DNA from: a virus
Length of the DNA stretch: 45,831 nt
IMG/VR virus record: IMGVR_UViG_3300045988_042777
Direction: 5' to 3' (one strand)
The notes under the pieces: model-generated
What the model was told of the DNA's origin: nothing
The model's input: the letters and a program-made list of their open reading frames with translations, nothing else
Databases searched by the model: none
Part shown: piece after piece, positions 5,968 to 40,432 of the stretch
Numbering within the stretch: position 1 is the first letter of the stretch
Layout of the letters: each line of letters starts with the position of its first letter
Position numbers and translations under genes: made by a program

Positions 5968-6642
5968 ATGTATCAGAATGACCCCATGAAAGTGCTGACC
6001 GGTGAGGTGCGCCTCTCCTACTGCAACCTGACCACCCCCAGGGCCTCCCAGCAGGGCGGTGAGCCCAAGTTTTCCGTCACCCTGCTCATCCCCAAGACCG
6101 ACACGGCCACCAAGGCGGACATTGACGCCGCCATCAACGCCGCCGCTCAGGAGGCTTTGACCAAGACCTGGAACGGGGCCCGGCCTCCGGTGCTCAAGGT
6201 GCCCATCCATGACGGTGACGGCGTGCGCCAGTCCGGTGTCCCCTTTGGCGATGAGTGCAAAGGCCACTGGGTCATCACCGCCAGCACCAAGAACAAGCCC
6301 CAGGTGGTGGGCATCGACAACATCAACTGTGAGCTGGCCCCCTCCGACATTTACAGCGGCATGTATGGCCGTGTGACCATCCGCTTTTTCGGCTACTCCA
6401 ACAGCGGAAACAAGGGCATCGGCTGCGGCCTGGGCAATGTCCTCAAGACCCGTGACGGGGAGCCTCTGAGCGGCCAGGCCTCCGCCGCCTCTGATTTTGC
6501 GGGCATCGATGCTGCCCCCGCCGCTCCGGCCCCCAACTATGGTGCCCCCGCTCCCAACTATGGTGCGGCCCCCATGCCTGCCAACACCCCGCCCTGGAAC
6601 GGCGGCAACGGCATCAACCCCATCACCGGACAGCCCATGTGA
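5968..6642 (+). CDS. DUF2815-type phage single-stranded DNA-binding protein
   Basis: GEVRLSYCNLTTPR start and GRVTIRFFGY block. Gly/Pro/Asn-rich tail with tandem APAPNYGA repeats. Confidence 0.65.
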   Translation: MYQNDPMKVLTGEVRLSYCNLTTPRASQQGGEPKFSVTLLIPKTDTATKADIDAAINAAAQEALTKTWNGARPPVLKVPIHDGDGVRQSGVPFGDECKGHWVITASTKNKPQVVGIDNINCELAPSDIYSGMYGRVTIRFFGYSNSGNKGIGCGLGNVLKTRDGEPLSGQASAASDFAGIDAAPAAPAPNYGAPAPNYGAAPMPANTPPWNGGNGINPITGQPM

Positions 6643-6666
6643 TAACTGACAAAGGAGGAAATACCG

Positions 6667-7044
6667 ATGAAAACCCGCTTTGATGGCAAGCTCTGGATTG
6701 GAGCTTTTGGCCTGGCCCTGGATGTCAAGGACATGGAAACCGCCCACCTGCTCAACACGGTCAAGATGCTGGTGCAAAAGCCCGCCCGTGTCCAGGCCAT
6801 GTTGGTCACTGACATTGAGGCCGCCACCTTTGAGGAACAGGAGGCCTGGACCCCCAACGGCAACGGGGAGGACATCCGCAAGAAGTCCCTCCACAACGCC
6901 ACCAGCCTCACCTCTGAGGAGCTGGTCCAGTATGTGACCGGCACCCCGCTCTTTAAGGCCATGATGGATGAGCTGGAGGCCCGTGGCGTGAACACGGAGA
7001 ACATCATGGAGCTCTACACCAAGGACGCCGCTTTCAGCGCATAA
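6667..7044 (+). CDS. Hypothetical protein
   Basis: AAAGGAGGAA RBS; 125-aa ORF between the SSB and the polymerase. Confidence 0.55.
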   Translation: MKTRFDGKLWIGAFGLALDVKDMETAHLLNTVKMLVQKPARVQAMLVTDIEAATFEEQEAWTPNGNGEDIRKKSLHNATSLTSEELVQYVTGTPLFKAMMDELEARGVNTENIMELYTKDAAFSA

Positions 7045-7056
7045 GGAGGCCCACTC

Positions 7057-9045
7057 ATGCACCATCTCAGCATTGACCTTGAAACCTACTCCAGCGTGCC
7101 GCTGGCAAAGGCCGGTGCCCAGAAGTACATCCAGAGCCCGGACTTTGAAATCCTGCTCTTTGCGTTCAGCCTGGATGGTGCGCCTGTTGAAATCATCGAC
7201 CTGGCCCGGGGGGAGAGGCTCCCCCCGTGGCTGGTCCAGGCCATCACCAGCCCGGAGTACATCAAGCACGCCTACAACGCCCCCTTTGAGTGGGGCTGCC
7301 TCTCAAAGTATCTGGGCACCCTGCCACCCAGCCAATGGCGCTGCACCATGTTCCATGGCCTCTACTGCGGCTACACGGCGGGCCTGGATGCCACTGGCAA
7401 GGCCCTGGGGCTCCCCCAGGACAAGCAAAAGCTCAACACTGGCAAGGCCCTCATCCGCTATTTCTGCATACCGTGCAAGCCCACAAAGGCCAACGGACAG
7501 AGGACCCGCAACCTGCCCCAGCATGACCCCGCAAAATGGGAGCTTTTCAAAGAGTATTGCAAGCAGGATGTGGTCACGGAGATGGAGATTGAGCGGCGGC
7601 TCTCAGCGTTCATGCCCCCGGACTGGGTGCAGAAACAATGGGAAACCGACCTCATCATCAACGCCCGGGGCGTGGCCGTTGACCTGGAGCTGGTCACCGG
7701 GGCCCTGTATCTGGGTGATACCGTGCGCCAAAACCTCACAGCGGAGGCCGTGCGGCTCTCCGGTCTGTCTAACCCCAACAGCGTGGCCCAGCTCTCCGCA
7801 TGGCTCCAGGAGGAGATTGGTGAGGAGCTGGCCGATCTGAGAAAGGACACCGTGGCCCGCCTGCTGGGCCGTGACGATAACAGCGCCCAGGTGAGCCGCA
7901 TGTTGGAAATCCGGCAAGAGCTGGGCAAGACCTCCACCAAAAAGTATGACGCCATAGAGGCCGCCGTCTGCGATGATGGCCGGGTCCGGGGACTGCTCCA
8001 ATTCTACGGGGCCAACCGGACAGGGCGCTGGGCCGGGCGGCTGGTGCAGGTGCAAAACCTGCCCCGGACCTACACGGAGCCGCTGGACCTGGCCCGTGAG
8101 CTGGTCAAGACCCGCAAGCTGGACGCTCTGCGGCTCATCTATGGCAGCGTGCCTGACACCCTCAGCCAGCTCATCCGCACGGCCTTTGTGGCCCCGGAGG
8201 GCCATGTCCTCATTGATGCTGATTTTTCGGCCATTGAGGCCCGTGTCATTTCCTGGCTGGCCGGTGAGCAATGGCGGCTGGAGGTGTTCCGCACACACGG
8301 CAAAATCTATGAGGCCTCTGCCTCTCAGATGTTCGGCGTGCCCCTGGAGCTCATCAAAAAGGGCAACCCAGAGTATGCACTCCGGCAAAAGGGCAAGGTG
8401 GCTGAGCTGGCCCTGGGCTACCAGGGCAGCACCGGTGCCCTCATCACCATGGGAGCCCTGGACATGGGGCTCACTGAGGAGGAGCTGCCGGACATCGTGA
8501 GCCGCTGGAGAGAGGCCAACAAGCGCATCCGTGACCTCTGGTATTCCATGGACAGCGCCGCCGTCCAAGTCATCACAGAGGGCGGCAGCGTGGGCGTCAA
8601 CGGCCTGCTACTGGCCCGTGAGTACGACTATGACAACGGCACCGACTGCCTCACCATCCTGCTCCCATCCGGGCGCAAGCTCTACTACATCAACCCCAGC
8701 ATTGGCCAGAACGAATGGGGGCGGCCCTCCATCTCCTACATGGGCATGGACCAGAAAACCAAGCGGTGGAAACGCATTGAAACCTATGGCGGCAAGCTGG
8801 TGGAGAACTGTGTGCAGGCCATCGCCCGGGACTGTCTGGCCGCATCCATTGACAGGCTGGAGGCCGCCAAGCTCCCTGTGGTGTTCCATGTGCATGATGA
8901 GGTGGTCATTGATGTGGCCCCCTTTGCCGATGAGGACACCATGCTCTCCACCGTCTGCTCCATCATGGGGGAGCCGGTGCCCTGGGCACCTGATCTGCCC
9001 CTCAAAGCCGCTGGCTGGGTGGGCTATTACTTCACCAAAGACTGA
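7057..9045 (+). CDS. Family-A DNA polymerase with N-terminal 3'-5' exonuclease
   Basis: Exo motif SIDLETYS. Pol motifs DADFSAIEARV (A), RQKGKVAELALGYQGS (B) and VHDEVVID (C). Confidence 0.9.
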   Translation: MHHLSIDLETYSSVPLAKAGAQKYIQSPDFEILLFAFSLDGAPVEIIDLARGERLPPWLVQAITSPEYIKHAYNAPFEWGCLSKYLGTLPPSQWRCTMFHGLYCGYTAGLDATGKALGLPQDKQKLNTGKALIRYFCIPCKPTKANGQRTRNLPQHDPAKWELFKEYCKQDVVTEMEIERRLSAFMPPDWVQKQWETDLIINARGVAVDLELVTGALYLGDTVRQNLTAEAVRLSGLSNPNSVAQLSAWLQEEIGEELADLRKDTVARLLGRDDNSAQVSRMLEIRQELGKTSTKKYDAIEAAVCDDGRVRGLLQFYGANRTGRWAGRLVQVQNLPRTYTEPLDLARELVKTRKLDALRLIYGSVPDTLSQLIRTAFVAPEGHVLIDADFSAIEARVISWLAGEQWRLEVFRTHGKIYEASASQMFGVPLELIKKGNPEYALRQKGKVAELALGYQGSTGALITMGALDMGLTEEELPDIVSRWREANKRIRDLWYSMDSAAVQVITEGGSVGVNGLLLAREYDYDNGTDCLTILLPSGRKLYYINPSIGQNEWGRPSISYMGMDQKTKRWKRIETYGGKLVENCVQAIARDCLAASIDRLEAAKLPVVFHVHDEVVIDVAPFADEDTMLSTVCSIMGEPVPWAPDLPLKAAGWVGYYFTKD

Positions 9046-9063: not shown

Positions 9064-9261
9064 ATGCACATGATAAACGACAAAGGAGAGGCCGTCTATT
9101 TCAACTATGTCCGTAAGAACAACAAAGACTACTGGGTGGTCAAGGGCATCGGCTCCACCGTTGTCTATGGGCGGGACCGTGAGCGCCGCAAAAGCCGCCA
9201 TTTCACCCAGGAACAGCAGGCGGAGCGCTACCTTGCCCGGCATGGTTTCCGGGCCGATTAG
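9064..9261 (+). CDS. Hypothetical protein
   Basis: AAGGAGG RBS; 65-aa ORF. Confidence 0.5.
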   Translation: MHMINDKGEAVYFNYVRKNNKDYWVVKGIGSTVVYGRDRERRKSRHFTQEQQAERYLARHGFRAD

Positions 9262-9303
9262 CGCCGTTTTTTCCGCTGGAAAAAACAACAAAGGAGGTTA
9301 CCA

Positions 9304-10565
9304 ATGAAAACCGCGTATGACCGGATGATGGAGAATGACTCCTACCAAAAGACCAAGGACTTCATCATCAAGCAAAAGTGGCCCTACCTCAAAAAAAGGC
9401 CTATGCCGAAAAAATCGCCTGGGAGTTTTACCAGCACCCCGATGTTGCCGGACGGTGCTATGTGACCGTTGGCGGGCTTGACAGCATTACCCTGTTTCTG
9501 TTTCTCCGATCTATCGGCATCAATGTGCCAGCCGTGTCCGTTTCCTCTCTGGAGGACAAGAGCATCCAGCTTGTCCACAAGGCCCTGGGCATCCGCTCCC
9601 TGCCTCCCATCAAGGATGAAAACGGGAGGCCATACACAAAAATGCGAGTTATACAGCAATATGGCTATCCTGTCATATCCAAAGAGGCGGCACAGAAAAT
9701 CAGCCATCTCCAAAACCCTACCAGCAAAAATGCAACCGTGCGCCACGCCATAATGACTGGAGAAACCGGAGAATACGGGGGATTTAAGAAAAACAGCCGG
9801 ATGAAAATGTCCCAAAAATGGCTGGAGAAGTTTGGCGGGCCGGAAAATGAAAACGAGGGGACCAACTACCAGACCGCTCCCTTTAAGGTTTCAGACGCCT
9901 GCTGCTACTACCTCAAAGAGCGCCCCTGTGATCTGTATGCCAAAGATACAAAGTGTTTCCCCTATCTGGGGCTCATGGCCTCCGAGGGTGGCCGCCGTCA
10001 AAAATCTCTCATGTGGAACGGGTGCAACTATGTCGGCAAAAAGACAAAGCGGAGCTGTCCCTTTGCCATTTTCAGCCGCCAGGACCTCCTCACAATGGCC
10101 CTGGAAATGGACGCCTACTACCACGCCCACTGGGAAGAATTTAAGCCAATCACCGTTGACGCTGACACCGATGCCGTGACCTACGGGAAGCCCATACACC
10201 TGGACACCATCGTCCCCGCCATCTACGGAGAGATTGCAGAGTGTGGCCACCGCTCTGAGGCCGAAATCCAGGAGCTTGTGGAGGCCAACGGCGGCATCAT
10301 GGATGAGAGCTTTTCCAGACCGCTCCTGTGTACCACTTTGGCCCAGAGGACCGGCTGCTCTATGTGCGGCTTTGGGGTACACATGGAAAAGCGCCCGCAC
10401 CGCTTTGACCTGCTCTGGGAACGAAACCCCAAAGAATGGGACTTGTGGATGCACCACATTGAGCAGGACGCCTCTGGCAACTGGTGCGGCTGGGACCGTG
10501 TTCTGGACTACATCGGCGTGGAGTGGAGAAACCCGGAGCAATTCTTTGGAGGTGAGAAAAAGTGA
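9304..10565 (+). CDS. PP-loop ATP pyrophosphatase of the PAPS-reductase/DndC-like family; N-terminus ambiguous (frame change at an A7 run)
   Basis: PP-loop VTVGGLDS and C-terminal Cys motif RTGCSMCGFG. The body is 9378-10565 from a GTG with no RBS. A strong AAGGAGG RBS with ATG lies at 9304 in another frame, and the two frames meet at A7 (9391-9397). Confidence 0.7.
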
Positions 10566-11692
10566 TCTATGCAGATGCAGCAGCCACCACAAGGCTGGCT
10601 CCAGGTGTTCTTAAAGCCATGCAGCCCTACATGGAGGATAACTTTTTCAATCCTGGTGGGGTCTACCCAGGAGCCGTCTATGTGCGCCGTGCAGTAAATG
10701 GTGCTCATTCCATTGTAGGTGAGGCGCTGGGGTGCCAAGGGAGAGAAATTTTCTTCACCTCTGGAGGAACGGAGGCAGACAACTGGGCGCTCAAGCAGTT
10801 TATTGCCGAAAAGCCCGCTCACATCATCACCAGCCAGATTGAACACAAAGCCATCCTCAACACCTGCAAAGCGCTCCAGCAAATGGGCTGGGATGTGACA
10901 TATCTGCCGGTGGATAAATACGGGATTGTGCAGCCGGATGACCTGCAATCTGCCATGCGAAACAACACCAGACTGGTGAGCATCATGCTGGCAAACAACG
11001 AAGTGGGGACCATTGAGCCAATTAAAACGCTGGCAGCTGTGGCCCACGCTGGAGGCGCTCTGTTTCACACTGACGCTGTGCAGGCGGTGGGACACATCCC
11101 CGTAAATGTGAATGAGCTGGGCGTGGACTTTCTTTCCCTCTCTGCCCACAAGTTTGGGGGCCCCAAAGGCATGGGGGCCCTCTACGCCAAAGACGGTGCA
11201 ATCTCCTCCTTTGTGGACGGAGGTGGCCAAGAAATGGGCCGCCGATCTGGCACAGAAAATGTGCCTGGTATCATTGGCACCGCTGTTGCCTTGATGCTGG
11301 CAGACGGCCTCATGCTGCACAATGCCCAGAAAGTCCGTCACCTCCGGGACCGCATCATTGATGAATTATCCAGCATGGACGGCGTTTTGGTAACTGGCCC
11401 GGACCCCGGACCTATGCGGCTGCCTGGGCTTGCCTCATTCATCATTGACGGAGTAGACAGTGAAACGCTTGTCATGGATTTATCTGCCAAGGGTGTCTGT
11501 GTTTCCGCTGGCTCAGCGTGTAGCTCTGGGACAGGCAAGCCATCCTATGTGCTCCGTGCCATGGGCTACTCCGAGCGGGAGGCCTGGTCCAGTCTGCGTG
11601 TTTCCCTGGATGACCACATAACCCACGATGAGGTTTCTGAGCTCATCCAGGCTATCAAATCCAGCATAAAGGTTATAAGAAACCAGCATTAA
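10562..11692 (+). CDS. Cysteine desulfurase (class V aminotransferase; NifS/IscS/DndA-like)
   Basis: PLP-lysine motif SAHKFGGPKG, RSGTENVPGI, and catalytic Cys loop SAGSACSSG. The GTG start overlaps the upstream stop (GTGA). Confidence 0.9.
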   Translation: MIYADAAATTRLAPGVLKAMQPYMEDNFFNPGGVYPGAVYVRRAVNGAHSIVGEALGCQGREIFFTSGGTEADNWALKQFIAEKPAHIITSQIEHKAILNTCKALQQMGWDVTYLPVDKYGIVQPDDLQSAMRNNTRLVSIMLANNEVGTIEPIKTLAAVAHAGGALFHTDAVQAVGHIPVNVNELGVDFLSLSAHKFGGPKGMGALYAKDGAISSFVDGGGQEMGRRSGTENVPGIIGTAVALMLADGLMLHNAQKVRHLRDRIIDELSSMDGVLVTGPDPGPMRLPGLASFIIDGVDSETLVMDLSAKGVCVSAGSACSSGTGKPSYVLRAMGYSEREAWSSLRVSLDDHITHDEVSELIQAIKSSIKVIRNQH

Positions 11693-11704: not shown

Positions 11705-12343
11705 ATGAAAATCATCTCTCCCAGTTTTGAAATTCTCACGCCCCTGGACGGCAAAACCATCCTCAAGCACATTGAGCTGTGTGGCCGGGTGTGCTATAAG
11801 TCCGAGGACAAAATCACCGACACCAGCGCCGCTGCCTTTGTGGCTGGCATTATCAAGCGGGGCCATGAGGCCGTGCTGGAGCACTTCAACATCACCATCA
11901 AGTTTATCTGTGACCGGGGTGTTTCCCATGAACTGGTCCGGCACCGTCTGGCATCCTACTGCCAGGAAAGCACCCGCTACTGCAATTACTCCAAAGAGGG
12001 CTTTGGCGGTGAAATCGCCGTCATCCGCCCGGCGTTTCTGGTGGAGGGCACCAAGGCCTTTGCCTGCTGGAGAGGGGCCTGTGAAACGGCTGAGCGGTCC
12101 TATTTCTCCCTGCTGGAGTGGGGCTGTTCTCCTCAAGAGGCCCGCTCTGTGTTGCCCAACAGCCTCAAGACGGAGGTGGTGATGACTGCCAACCTGCGGG
12201 AATGGCGGCATTTCTTCAAGCTCCGCACGGCTCCGGCAGCTCACCCCCAGATGAGAGAGGTGGCCATCCCGCTGCTCCACCGGATGCAGGAGCTCATCCC
12301 CGTTGTGTTTGATGATCTGGAGGTGCCGCATGAAAAGAGCTGA
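11705..12343 (+). CDS. thyX: FAD-dependent thymidylate synthase ThyX
   Basis: ThyX signature RHRLASYCQESTRY (RHRxxSxxxxSxR); AAGGAGG RBS. Confidence 0.9.
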   Translation: MKIISPSFEILTPLDGKTILKHIELCGRVCYKSEDKITDTSAAAFVAGIIKRGHEAVLEHFNITIKFICDRGVSHELVRHRLASYCQESTRYCNYSKEGFGGEIAVIRPAFLVEGTKAFACWRGACETAERSYFSLLEWGCSPQEARSVLPNSLKTEVVMTANLREWRHFFKLRTAPAAHPQMREVAIPLLHRMQELIPVVFDDLEVPHEKS

Positions 12344-13233: not shown

Positions 13234-13432
13234 ACCCTGGGAAAACGGTGAGGGCTACCCTGACCCCACCGCCTACAACGCCCTGCGGCCCATCATGCAG
13301 GAGGACGCCGCCCTGGAGGGAAAGGTCAATTTTCTCATCAAGGTGCTCAAATTCATCATAGCGGAAAGCGGCTTTGAGCTGCTGGCCCGTATTGAAATCA
13401 AGGACAAAAAGACCGGGAGGTGTTTCAGATGA
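13223..13432 (+). CDS. Hypothetical protein
   Basis: 69-aa ORF packed into the operon. Confidence 0.45.
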   Translation: MTPKPWENGEGYPDPTAYNALRPIMQEDAALEGKVNFLIKVLKFIIAESGFELLARIEIKDKKTGRCFR

Positions 13433-13758
13433 AAGCTGCTGACACCGAAAGCACCAGAGGGGTGCTCCAGGTCATTGAGGCCATCGGCCTGCCCGCTGTG
13501 CTGGAGCAATGCGCTGAGGAGCTGGCCGAACTGACCCAGGCCTCTCTCAAAATGGCCAGAAAGCTCCGGGGTGAAAACCCCACGCCCGTGACCCATGCAC
13601 AAGCGGCAGCGCATCTGCATGAGGAGCTGGGAGATGTCCGCCTGTGCCTCAAGGTCCTGGATGTCGCTATGGGCGGATATAACACCACCGCCGTGGAGGC
13701 GGAAAAGCTCCGGCGCTGGCTGGAACGAATAACCCAAGAACAGAAAAACCCAGAGTAA
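13429..13758 (+). CDS. MazG-like nucleotide pyrophosphohydrolase (putative)
   Basis: Helical protein with EELAEL ... EELGDV acidic pairs typical of MazG-like folds. GGGAGG RBS precedes ATG 13429. Confidence 0.5.
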   Translation: MKAADTESTRGVLQVIEAIGLPAVLEQCAEELAELTQASLKMARKLRGENPTPVTHAQAAAHLHEELGDVRLCLKVLDVAMGGYNTTAVEAEKLRRWLERITQEQKNPE

Positions 13759-39394: not shown

Positions 39395-40432
39395 ATGAAA
39401 CCCGTGCTTAAATTTTCCGAGATTTGCACCTTTGCGGTGCTTTACAAAGCCTACCTTGCGGCCAGACGGGGCAAACGCTCCAGAGCCGCTACCGCACATT
39501 ATGAGGTCCACCTGCTGGCCAATATCGTCAACCTTGTCTATATCCTGCAAACCAAGATTTACCGCCCGGGGCTGTTCCGGGTGTTCTATGTCTATGAGCC
39601 CAAAAAGAGGCTTGTGCAGGCTCCGGCTTTCGTTGACAAAGTGGTCCAGCACGCTTTGGTGGATAACCTCATATATGAACGCATCACAAGAAGTTTCATT
39701 CTTGACAACTACGCATCCCAGAGAGGAAAAGGCCTGCACTTTGGGCTGGACAGGCTCAAGGGCTTTTTCACAGAATACTGGAACAAATACCGCACAGCGG
39801 AGGGCTGGGTCCTCAAGGCAGATGTGCGGCATTTCTTTGCGTCCATCGACCATGACAGGCTCAAGGAAAAGCTCAAAAAGCTGGACCTTGAGCCCGTTGT
39901 CTATGATCTGCTGTGTACCTACATAGACAGCACGGACGGGCTGCCGCTGGGCTATCAAACCAGGCAGCTTTTTGCCCTGCTGTTTCTGGATGAATTTGAC
40001 CACTTTGTCAAAGAGCGGCTCCGCATCCGCTGGTATGGCCGTTATATGGATGACTTTTTCCTCATCCACCCTGACAAAGAATACCTGCAATTTTGCCTCA
40101 AAGAAATCCGGGCTTTCATGGCCAGTTTGGGGCTGGAGCTCAATGAGAAAACCCAGATTTTCCCGCTGAGAAATGGGATTGACTTTCTGGGCTTTCATAC
40201 CTACTTGACGGAGCAGGGCAAGGTCATCCGCAAGTTACGGCACAGCAGCATCAAGCGTATGCGCTCTAAGCTCCGCCGGTGGGAAAAAGACTACCCGGCG
40301 GGCCTTGTGAGCCGGGAGGTCATCCTGCAAAGCTGGCAGGCCTGGGACGCCCACGCTGCTCACGGCAACACCTGGTCCTTGCGCCAACAGGTGCGGGACC
40401 GTGTTCAAAACATTCTAAAGGAGGAAATCTAA
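39395..40432 (+). CDS. DGR reverse transcriptase
   Basis: RT motifs LKADVRHFFASIDH, LPLGYQTRQLFALLFLDEFDHF and YGRYMDDFFLI (YMDD). Confidence 0.9.
   Translation: MKPVLKFSEICTFAVLYKAYLAARRGKRSRAATAHYEVHLLANIVNLVYILQTKIYRPGLFRVFYVYEPKKRLVQAPAFVDKVVQHALVDNLIYERITRSFILDNYASQRGKGLHFGLDRLKGFFTEYWNKYRTAEGWVLKADVRHFFASIDHDRLKEKLKKLDLEPVVYDLLCTYIDSTDGLPLGYQTRQLFALLFLDEFDHFVKERLRIRWYGRYMDDFFLIHPDKEYLQFCLKEIRAFMASLGLELNEKTQIFPLRNGIDFLGFHTYLTEQGKVIRKLRHSSIKRMRSKLRRWEKDYPAGLVSREVILQSWQAWDAHAAHGNTWSLRQQVRDRVQNILKEEI

Follow-up and report, generated by a model that had tools for sequence, protein, structure and literature searches.

Organization of the locus

The DNA analysed here, called the window below, is the whole 45,831-nucleotide stretch of the IMG/VR virus record IMGVR_UViG_3300045988_042777, a phage-like genome of about 45.8 kb (a phage of a gut bacterium) with nearly all of its genes on the + strand. 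Its subject is a pair of adjoining genes, referred to as gene A and gene B: gene A encodes a PP-loop protein related to phosphoadenosine phosphosulfate (PAPS) reductases with a putative iron–sulfur (Fe-S) site, and gene B encodes a cysteine desulfurase. The features of the locus are collected in Table 1. The two genes share the four nucleotides GTGA, which hold both the TGA stop codon of gene A and the GTG start codon of gene B; this coupling had been noticed in an initial annotation of the window and is confirmed, with the addition of a GGAGG sequence 9 nt upstream of gene B. The same 4-nt overlap is found in L242-L247 (6 independent assemblies; L- and P-numbers are the labels of the loci and proteins compared). 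The motifs that had been named for the two proteins, VGGLDS and RTGCSMCGFG in gene A and SAHKFGGPKG and SAGSACSSG in gene B, were all located in the sequence.

Table 1. Coordinates of gene A, gene B and their neighbours in the window.
Feature	Position	Strand	Remark
Gene A, main open reading frame (ORF), PP-loop / Fe-S PAPS-reductase-like	9378-10565	+	395 aa
Gene B, NifS/IscS-type (class I) cysteine desulfurase	10562-11692	+	376 aa
Shine-Dalgarno sequence AAAGGAGG of gene A	9290-9297	+	strong ribosome-binding site (RBS), 6 nt before ATG 9304
Gene A 5′ segment, frame of ATG 9304 (MKTAYDRMMENDSYQKTKDFIIKQKWPY...)	9304-9396	+	matches N-termini of intact homologues
Gene A frameshift site, C/A homopolymer tract	9385-9397	+	alignments with L004, L162, L242-L247
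Gene A PP-loop VGGLDS (family consensus SGGxDS)	9468-9485	+	family alignment
Gene A Cys-Cys dyad (CCYYLKERP)	9900-9905	+	invariant in family alignment
Gene A GCN cysteine	10020-10028	+	>=90% conserved in family alignment
Gene A RTGCSMCGFG, CxxC motif	10347-10376	+	R-T-G-C-x-x-C-x-x-G >=90% conserved
GGAGG RBS of gene B and GTGA overlap	10548-10565	+	GTGA itself at 10562-10565
Gene B pyridoxal phosphate (PLP)-lysine motif SAHKFGGPKG	11141-11170	+	H, K invariant in desulfurase alignment
Gene B persulfide-forming Cys loop SAGSACSSG	11504-11530	+	Cys invariant in desulfurase alignment
Family-A DNA polymerase	7057-9045	+	PF00476
Basic 65-aa ORF between polymerase and gene A	9064-9261	+	called as gene in L242-L247
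ThyX thymidylate synthase	11705-12343	+	PF02511, 2.3e-46

Gene A was at first taken to be read from 9304. The ATG codon and the RBS at that place are real; the frame that they open is broken at the C/A tract, differs from that of the main ORF and ends with a stop at 9465. Homology to the relatives is picked up again at about 9396, and the 5′ segment matches the N-termini of Saumur WAK79605, L004 and P0001-P0003. The tract of the intact relatives is TACCCCAAAAAAAAGG (five assemblies) or TACCCCCAAAAAAAGG (two, L162 and L247), and that of the window is TACCTCAAAAAAAGG, which is 1 nt shorter. Gene A is intact, with 420 aa, in every relative examined, including phages with an identical desulfurase: the exact gene B protein of the window was found in at least 191 sample blocks of public assemblies, and all six displayed contigs with this identical protein carry an intact 420-aa gene A that overlaps gene B by 4 nt. 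In the comparison with L162, whose gene A is 98% identical and whose DNA identity is 94-97% across the compared stretch of about 9 kb, the frameshift is the sole uncompensated frame-breaking indel inside an ORF. Past the shift, no stop codon interrupts the 395 codons, which share 96-98% identity with intact copies, and a −1 shift on the A-run, or an A8 tract, would give back a product of the relatives' length.

The C/A junction is a slippage-prone tract inside coding sequence. Because the remaining 395 codons are open, the relatives are intact and the tract is homopolymeric, the shift in gene A most probably stems from an error in the homopolymer or from very recent slippage at the C4-5/A7-8 tract. 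The junction is also polymorphic in natural populations, being C4A8 in five of the L242-L247 assemblies, where it lies at about 1825-1837, and C5A7 in one (Pro-Lys vs Pro-Gln).

Family, motifs and fold of gene A

The protein of gene A matched no Pfam (even at E=10), NCBIfam or PADLOC model, and its phmmer search against PDB returned noise only; the sole direct family match is PHROG 424 'PAPS reductase' (8.7e-16). Its homologues are numerous, amounting to 5,447 at E<=1e-3 in a word-indexed search and to 1,157 representatives in an exhaustive search. Among 45 aligned homologues, PF01507 is matched by 31 (best 4.6e-29), BrxP by 27 (best 1e-22), the PADLOC SspD model by 25 (best 2e-12), the PADLOC DndC model by 14 (best 4e-7) and TIGR03183 by 3 (1.3e-4); many also match CysH and adenosine phosphosulfate (APS) reductase models, and 4-6 match the TtcA/TtuA models weakly. 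Since gene A itself is without a Pfam match and 31 of its 45 homologues match PF01507, it is placed in the PAPS_reduct superfamily (PF01507) by transitive homology. That is to say, the label 'PAPS-reductase/DndC-like' given in the initial annotation stands through PHROG 424 and the relatives and not through a direct match, and the narrower likening of gene A to DndC/SspD was given up, as it matches neither model. Judged by its sequence, gene A appears to be a divergent branch of the PAPS-reductase-like PP-loop superfamily and a member of no named defence-system family.

The residues that are invariant or nearly so in the 45 homologues are GGxDS, the Glu of LE(D/x), a Cys-Cys followed by K..P, ExxxR, GCN and RTGCxxCxFG, and the PP-loop and GCxxC are present in 143 of 143 locus-derived family proteins. 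In APS reductases, CC and CxxC ligate a [4Fe-4S] cluster, and the CC of the family member P0231 is aligned residue for residue to that of 'ECCGIRKIEPL' in the APS reductase of Pseudomonas aeruginosa (2goy), as well as to HECCRLRKVVPL of the Mycobacterium tuberculosis enzyme (7lhr). The ATP-type loop GGxDS is kept in gene A, and the aligned reductase structures have the degenerate SFGIQA or SGAED instead. The C-terminal catalytic cysteine motif of CysH is of the ECGLH type; no conserved Cys follows CxxC in the alignment of the 45 homologues. The AlphaFold2 model of gene A is of high quality (predicted local distance difference test 93, predicted template modelling score 0.89), and its top Foldseek matches in PDB are 6vpu, 2goy, 2oq2 and 1sur (probability 0.94-1.0). 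The best folds are thus those of CysH, APS reductase and yeast PAPS reductase, followed by TtuA and GMP synthetase, all with modest scores; the TtuA match is lower-ranked (template modelling (TM) score 0.2-0.35).

Other identities of gene A were considered and rejected. A true (P)APS reductase CysH does not agree with the intact PP-loop and the absent C-terminal Cys, and TtcA/TtuA does not agree with the weak matches in 4-6 of the 45 relatives, the low TM score of TtuA and the different branch. An IbrA type, which had been raised as the identity that would speak against a role in sulfur transfer, was dismissed too, since none of the 45 family members gave a Pfam match to DUF3440, the hallmark of IbrA. 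No ParB-type domain was present in the Pfam-scanned window ORFs or in the recurrent neighbours of gene A, and no ParB/IbrB model was applied to the remaining window ORFs. In the sister sub-clade of gene A (L005-L014, L108-L117; e.g., L008 7120-7314), the protein has an extra zinc-ribbon-like C-terminal tail of about 45 aa with CxxC...CxxC, which is absent from the window protein.

Gene B, a generic cysteine desulfurase

Gene B encodes a complete class-V cysteine desulfurase, as had been annotated. PF00266 covers its full length (residues 1-371, 1.7e-73), and K197 (the PLP lysine), C320 (the loop Cys) and H95 (the active-site His) are invariant in the desulfurase alignment; the Cys loop is kept in every phage-linked desulfurase copy. 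The scores against TIGR03402 NifS (407 bits) and TIGR03235 DndA (316 bits) are below the respective cut-offs of 530.75 and 480, and gene B is therefore a family member not assignable to a specific NCBIfam equivalog. In PDB, the scores of IscS, NFS1 and NifS (244-276 bits) are higher than that of SspA (217), which is in turn higher than that of DndA (3vax, 167). The PADLOC SspA model is matched at 1.4e-126, and the strong PADLOC SspA/DndA matches of gene B mirror the general family. Among cellular proteins, the nearest, with about 50% identity, are the NifS of Oscillospiraceae and of other Clostridia. By these sequence comparisons gene B is a complete generic NifS, nearer to the housekeeping NifS of Clostridia than to DndA or SspA, and no specialised form of either. 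In L004, where gene A is 96% and gene B 80-85% identical to the window genes, the C-terminus of the desulfurase is frameshifted (about 7560-7738) and the conserved 'LRVSL' is lost, which is retained in the window.

Linkage of gene A and gene B across genomes

The co-occurrence analysis proposed with the initial annotation bore out the pairing. In IMG/VR, where 80 loci encoding relatives of gene A were compared, a desulfurase lies directly downstream in 11 of 11 loci with a gene A at least 66% identical and in none of the 72 loci at or below 60% identity. Among 80 bacterial or metagenome-assembled genome (MAG) contigs, a desulfurase stands beside gene A in the three closest relatives, namely L162 (Ca. 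Avoscillospira), L163 (Faecousia) and L164 (Oscillibacter), and in none of the other 77. In the neighbour-joining tree of 143 unique gene A proteins, the desulfurase-linked members form one pure clade of 15, together with the distant singletons L101 and L135; in other words, the desulfurase is directly downstream in 15/15 members of the immediate clade of gene A vs 2/128 outside it (naive Fisher p = 1.8e-18, ignoring shared ancestry).

The linked desulfurases are not of one descent. Gene B of the window type is 48-51% identical to cellular Clostridia NifS and only 41-43% identical to gene B of the sister sub-clade, which in turn shares about 50% identity with cellular NifS, and the copies of L101, L135 and L164 (upstream) are each nearest to a different cellular NifS. 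Since the copies are closer to different cellular NifS than to each other, the sequences imply non-orthologous desulfurases and at least four separate events in which a host NifS was captured or replaced next to a PAPS-reductase-like gene. Because the adjacency is clade-wide and has repeatedly arisen with non-orthologous NifS genes, the linkage looks selected, and the two genes seem to behave as a functional pair. No third gene was seen to be kept with the pair across contexts.

Several single loci show other arrangements of the same genes. In L164 (3194-7432, an Oscillibacter MAG contig), two different desulfurases flank the gene A homologue, and the upstream copy is 61% identical to the NifS of Flavonifractor, which suggests a recent capture or a gene under replacement. 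In P0002 and P0037 (single contigs of two lineages), an in-frame fusion joins gene A to the C-terminal third of a desulfurase, and in P0018 (a single contig) gene A is fused to the downstream N6/N4 methyltransferase; these fusions look like internal deletions or assembly artefacts. Seen from the desulfurase, the association is weaker: about 13 of 80 viral desulfurase loci, which were retrieved with an alignment query (gene B alone as query gave 3 loci), have a PAPS-reductase-like gene within 5 kb, and viral desulfurases therefore occur in other settings too. Another recurrent NifS-like setting was met in about 10 viral loci (L085, L089, L091, L093, L100, L107, L109, L120, L137, L155; 0-6 kb), in the order of a Pfam-less protein of about 320 aa, a DUF7864/DUF7863/DUF7862 protein of about 770 aa, a BrxL-like Lon ATPase and the desulfurase, which may be an undescribed BREX- or phosphorothioate (PT)-related cassette.

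Gene neighbourhoods

In the lineage of the window, the pair has the DNA polymerase on its upstream side and ThyX on its downstream side. This placement, given in the initial annotation as lying between DNA polymerase and ThyX/MazG-like genes, holds for the polymerase and ThyX by their Pfam families, and the MazG-like label of 13420-13758 was not confirmed in a PDB comparison. The polymerase is also found upstream of gene A in L004, L162, L163 and L242-L247, and ThyX is followed by a DUF6378 protein and a VapE-type primase-helicase. The small ORF between polymerase and gene A gave no family match in Pfam and PHROG searches and is absent from L163. A scan for promoters and terminators around the pair revealed nothing exceeding shuffled sequences, and no tRNA genes were found in the window.

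The flanking genes of the pair differ between the window type and the sister sub-clade. In the latter (e.g., L008), the order is MT-A70 methylase, HD protein, SLT, C5-cytosine methyltransferase, gene A and gene B, followed by an N6/N4 DNA methyltransferase, Rep and DUF5131, so that the pair lies within a DNA-methylase block. The distant relatives of gene A without a desulfurase stand at the head of replication modules (AAA_23, Gp157, AAA_24, helicase) or between terminase subunits. The SMC_N/AAA_23 ATPase that often comes after gene A in the 54-55% identical desulfurase-less clade (L037-L083) bears a superficial likeness to DndD; it was considered as an analogue of DndD and rejected, because it was judged to be part of the standard siphovirus Gp157/AAA_24/helicase module and is absent from the desulfurase-linked clade.

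In the PADLOC scan of 61 window ORFs (best 25 of 102 families), the strong matches are gene B, a reverse transcriptase and an SNF2 helicase. The reverse transcriptase is the ORF 39395-40432 (PADLOC RT 2.9e-31, with several DRT/UG models matched) and probably belongs to a diversity-generating retroelement; the database protein P0003 is a chimera in which gene A up to 'RTGCS' is joined to the sequence of this reverse transcriptase. Relative to the window, the otherwise collinear L162 lacks the 125-aa gene 6667-7044 (stretch 6641-7041), an indel of a single gene directly before the polymerase. Within ThyX, a short segment (12026-12098) diverges strongly from L162 and has several compensating 1-nt indels; it may have come about by recombination in a patch or by a local excursion of the frame.

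Proposed function and alternative explanations

Both genes carry complete catalytic motifs (the frameshift aside), are tightly coupled and are linked, convergently, throughout the clade. It is proposed that gene B, as a PLP-dependent enzyme, would strip L-cysteine of its sulfur and hold that sulfur as a persulfide on the loop cysteine. Gene A, as a putative PP-loop ATP pyrophosphatase with an APS-reductase-like core and a [4Fe-4S]-type Cys-Cys...CxxC site, would receive this sulfur on the Cys dyad or the cluster, and/or rely on gene B for the assembly of the cluster; it would then adenylate an oxygen on a nucleic-acid target with the ATP of the PP-loop, and sulfur would replace that oxygen. 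The likeliest target would be the phage's own replicating DNA, on which a phosphorothioate-like or thio-base mark would shield it from host restriction, and the phage-borne desulfurase would free the pathway from the IscS/NifS supply of the host. In known systems, DndC becomes an Fe-S protein through DndA, for which IscS can stand in (PMC8569181), and DndC has a three-Cys cluster and a sulfur-relay Cys dyad (PMC10853773). A fusion of a PAPS domain and Dam in a Vibrio podophage confers escape from Dnd restriction (bioRxiv 10.1101/2021.05.05.442762), PT systems are frequent in gut Bacillota (PMC12914056), and an anti-defence role has been suggested for phage PAPS reductases under Aca control.

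That the two genes cooperate in a sulfur-dependent reaction is probable. The preferred reading, put forward tentatively, is that they form a two-gene module for sulfur-dependent DNA modification and anti-restriction whose chemistry and target are putative. Phage DNA and an anti-restriction role are favoured because of the replication/methylase context, the kinship of the wider family with DndC, SspD and BrxP, and the literature; DNA as the target is plausible, if somewhat short of an even call, and which of DNA backbone, base, nucleotide or RNA is acted upon we infer from this context. A phosphorothioate as the specific product is doubtful. The sulfur-transfer modification module of the initial annotation is accordingly kept as regards the functional pair, the DNA replication/methylation context and the sulfur-handling features of gene A, with its target a matter of context. 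For a phosphorothioate product, the lack of DndDE-, SspBC- and BrxCZL-type partners would mean a route different from all three known systems; as a speculation, such a route might draw on intermediates of replication or on Dnd components of the host. A two-gene phage system, sufficient by itself, that writes sulfur, as phosphorothioate or a new thio-base, on replicating phage DNA without DndDE, SspBC or BrxCZL is rather unlikely.

Several points weigh against a sulfur-dependent DNA-modification module. Gene A is frameshifted in this window, and its product needs a frame correction; gene A itself matches no DndC, SspD or BrxP model, and its top Foldseek matches are weak (target TM about 0.5, E about 1e-2). 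Partners of the DndD/E, SspB/C and BrxC/Z/L types are considered essential in all three known PT systems (PMC12914056), and no DndB-E, SspB-D or Brx protein is among the matches listed for the 61 window ORFs (best 25 of 102 families, better than about 1e-12). The statement in the initial annotation that DndB/D/E and SspB/C partners are lacking thus holds for strong matches, weak ones not being covered by this list. Most of the family of gene A, including relatives of 54-62% identity, have no desulfurase of their own, and gene B is therefore an accessory and not a universal partner. Gene B is generic, with IscS/NifS scoring above SspA and SspA above DndA, and therefore could serve general Fe-S assembly; in the relative L004, moreover, its C-terminus is frameshifted. 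The Vibrio podophage p0018 was not recovered in tblastn searches with gene A or P0231, so its homology to gene A is not established. Finally, the case for sulfur modification by the pair is a genomic one.

It could be that gene B only builds or repairs the Fe-S cluster of gene A or supplies Fe-S clusters to the phage, and that gene A adenylates DNA or a nucleotide without thiolating it (e.g., for an amidation or some other substitution, cf. QueC and further PP-loop enzymes). Such a division of labour is in line with DndA as the documented assembler of the cluster of DndC (PMC12914056, PMC8569181), with a Cys pattern in gene A equal to the structural cluster ligands of APS reductase, with the housekeeping type of gene B, and with weak matches of gene A relatives to QueC, TilS, NAD synthase and GMP synthase models. 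Still, the repeated, tight capture of a desulfurase beside gene A argues for a stoichiometric need and not for general supply, no NifU/IscU-sized gene recurs beside the pairs (no NifU/IscU model was run), and the characterised members of the PAPS-reductase branch with a competent PP-loop, DndC, SspD and BrxP, all insert sulfur (PMC12914056); this explanation is considered unlikely. The frameshift gives room for another one, that the module is dead or decaying in this genome, with gene A a pseudogene and nothing modified here. The 1-nt deficit vs every relative, the lack of a second uncompensated indel of this kind in about 9 kb vs L162, the damaged gene B of L004 and the existence of the deletion chimeras P0002, P0037 and P0018 are what such decay would leave behind. 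Set against this are the open, highly conserved 395 codons after the shift, the A7/A8-C4/C5 homopolymer junction as a classic place of sequencing error or slippage, and the same-length protein given back by a −1 slip or an A8 tract, and decay is judged quite improbable.

The pair might also thiolate tRNA of the host or the phage, as IscS does together with TtcA, TtuA, ThiI or MnmA, and thereby tune translation during infection. The same two activities do serve thionucleosides, TtuA is a secondary fold match of gene A, a few of its relatives match the TtcA, TtuA and MnmA models weakly, and relatives in archaeal viruses are annotated as fusions of PUA and PAPS reductase. However, the window has no tRNA genes, gene A stands on the PAPS/APS-reductase branch and not on that of TtcA/TtuA, and its neighbours are DNA polymerase, ThyX and DNA methyltransferases, which makes tRNA a very unlikely target. 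The database name of the family, 'PAPS reductase', and the common scoring of 'cysH' in viromes would instead make the two genes auxiliary metabolic genes (AMGs) that boost sulfate assimilation (APS/PAPS reductase) and cysteine or Fe-S turnover, and the nearest solved folds (CysH, APS reductase) and the matches of relatives to CysH/APS-reductase models agree with this name. Yet the ATP-type PP-loop GGxDS kept in gene A is lost in true reductases, the C-terminal catalytic Cys of the reductases is absent and no conserved Cys lies past CxxC, and no other sulfate-assimilation gene is nearby; a metabolic role of this kind is therefore held to be highly improbable. The DNA-modification module remains the reading preferred here.

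Significance

Phage 'PAPS reductase' genes are among the most often reported viral 'sulfur AMGs', and we know of none with a demonstrated biochemical activity. The repeated, independent capture of a desulfurase next to genes of one such lineage, in some cases with DNA methyltransferases on either side, is genomic evidence for the use of sulfur on nucleic acid and not for sulfate reduction. Should the two genes suffice to modify DNA, no known sulfur-based DNA-modification system would be smaller. The pair would then also give phages an answer to the PT-based defences (Dnd, Ssp, BREX-4) that are common among gut Bacillota, and researchers a simple two-gene tool with which to study how PP-loop Fe-S enzymes thiolate DNA. 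If it were self-sufficient, it would also give the real function of the widespread phage 'PAPS reductase/cysH' genes that are counted in viromics as sulfur-metabolism AMGs. In any case, the module offers a concrete, testable handle on the function of these ubiquitous genes.

Comparison with known systems

The DndA/DndC pair resembles gene A and gene B in that a NifS-like desulfurase adjoins a PP-loop Fe-S PAPS-reductase-like protein with a Cys dyad. Moreover, the Dnd desulfurase is dispensable when a housekeeping IscS is given, which parallels the gene A relatives without gene B. Among the features of DndC (PMC10853773), the PP-loop (VGGLDS), the invariant CC and the conserved GCN and CxxC are all present in gene A. 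Unlike DndC, gene A fails the TIGR03183 and PADLOC DndC models; no DndB, DndD or DndE is among the strong PADLOC matches listed for the window, gene B scores lower to DndA than to IscS/NifS, and the pair is phage-borne, in a replication or methylase context.

The SspA/SspD pair has the same two activities, and gene B matches the PADLOC SspA model strongly, whereas gene A has no SspD match (its relatives reach 2e-12) and neither the SspB nickase nor the SspC ATPase is among the strong matches listed. For the wider family of gene A, the best defence-model match is BrxP of BREX type 4 (27/45 relatives, to 1e-22); unlike BREX type 4, gene A of the window is without a BrxP match, and no BrxC, BrxZ/PglZ or BrxL is among the strong matches listed. 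In addition, BrxP has no Cys dyad (PMC12839542), and gene A has one. The assimilatory APS reductases (2goy, 7lhr) are like gene A in their fold, which is the nearest among solved structures, in the homologous Cys-Cys...CxxC and in the 'CCxxxKxxP' motif, but gene A differs from them in the canonical ATP PP-loop, the missing C-terminal catalytic Cys and a C-terminal half that is larger by about 150 residues.

Among phages, those of PHROG 424 (the Clostridium phages Saumur, Villandry and phiCP34O) carry the family of gene A itself, with 54-58% identity in Saumur and Villandry. Unlike the window, they have no adjoining desulfurase, and in several of them the gene lies by the terminase or heads the replication module. 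A literature search found no description of a phage-encoded desulfurase paired with a PAPS-reductase-like gene. The Vibrio podophage p0018 (Piel et al.) differs from the window in having the N-terminal PAPS half only and no phage desulfurase; it is akin to it in that a phage PAPS-reductase-like domain is combined with a DNA methyltransferase (Dam), and there the escape from Dnd has been shown genetically.

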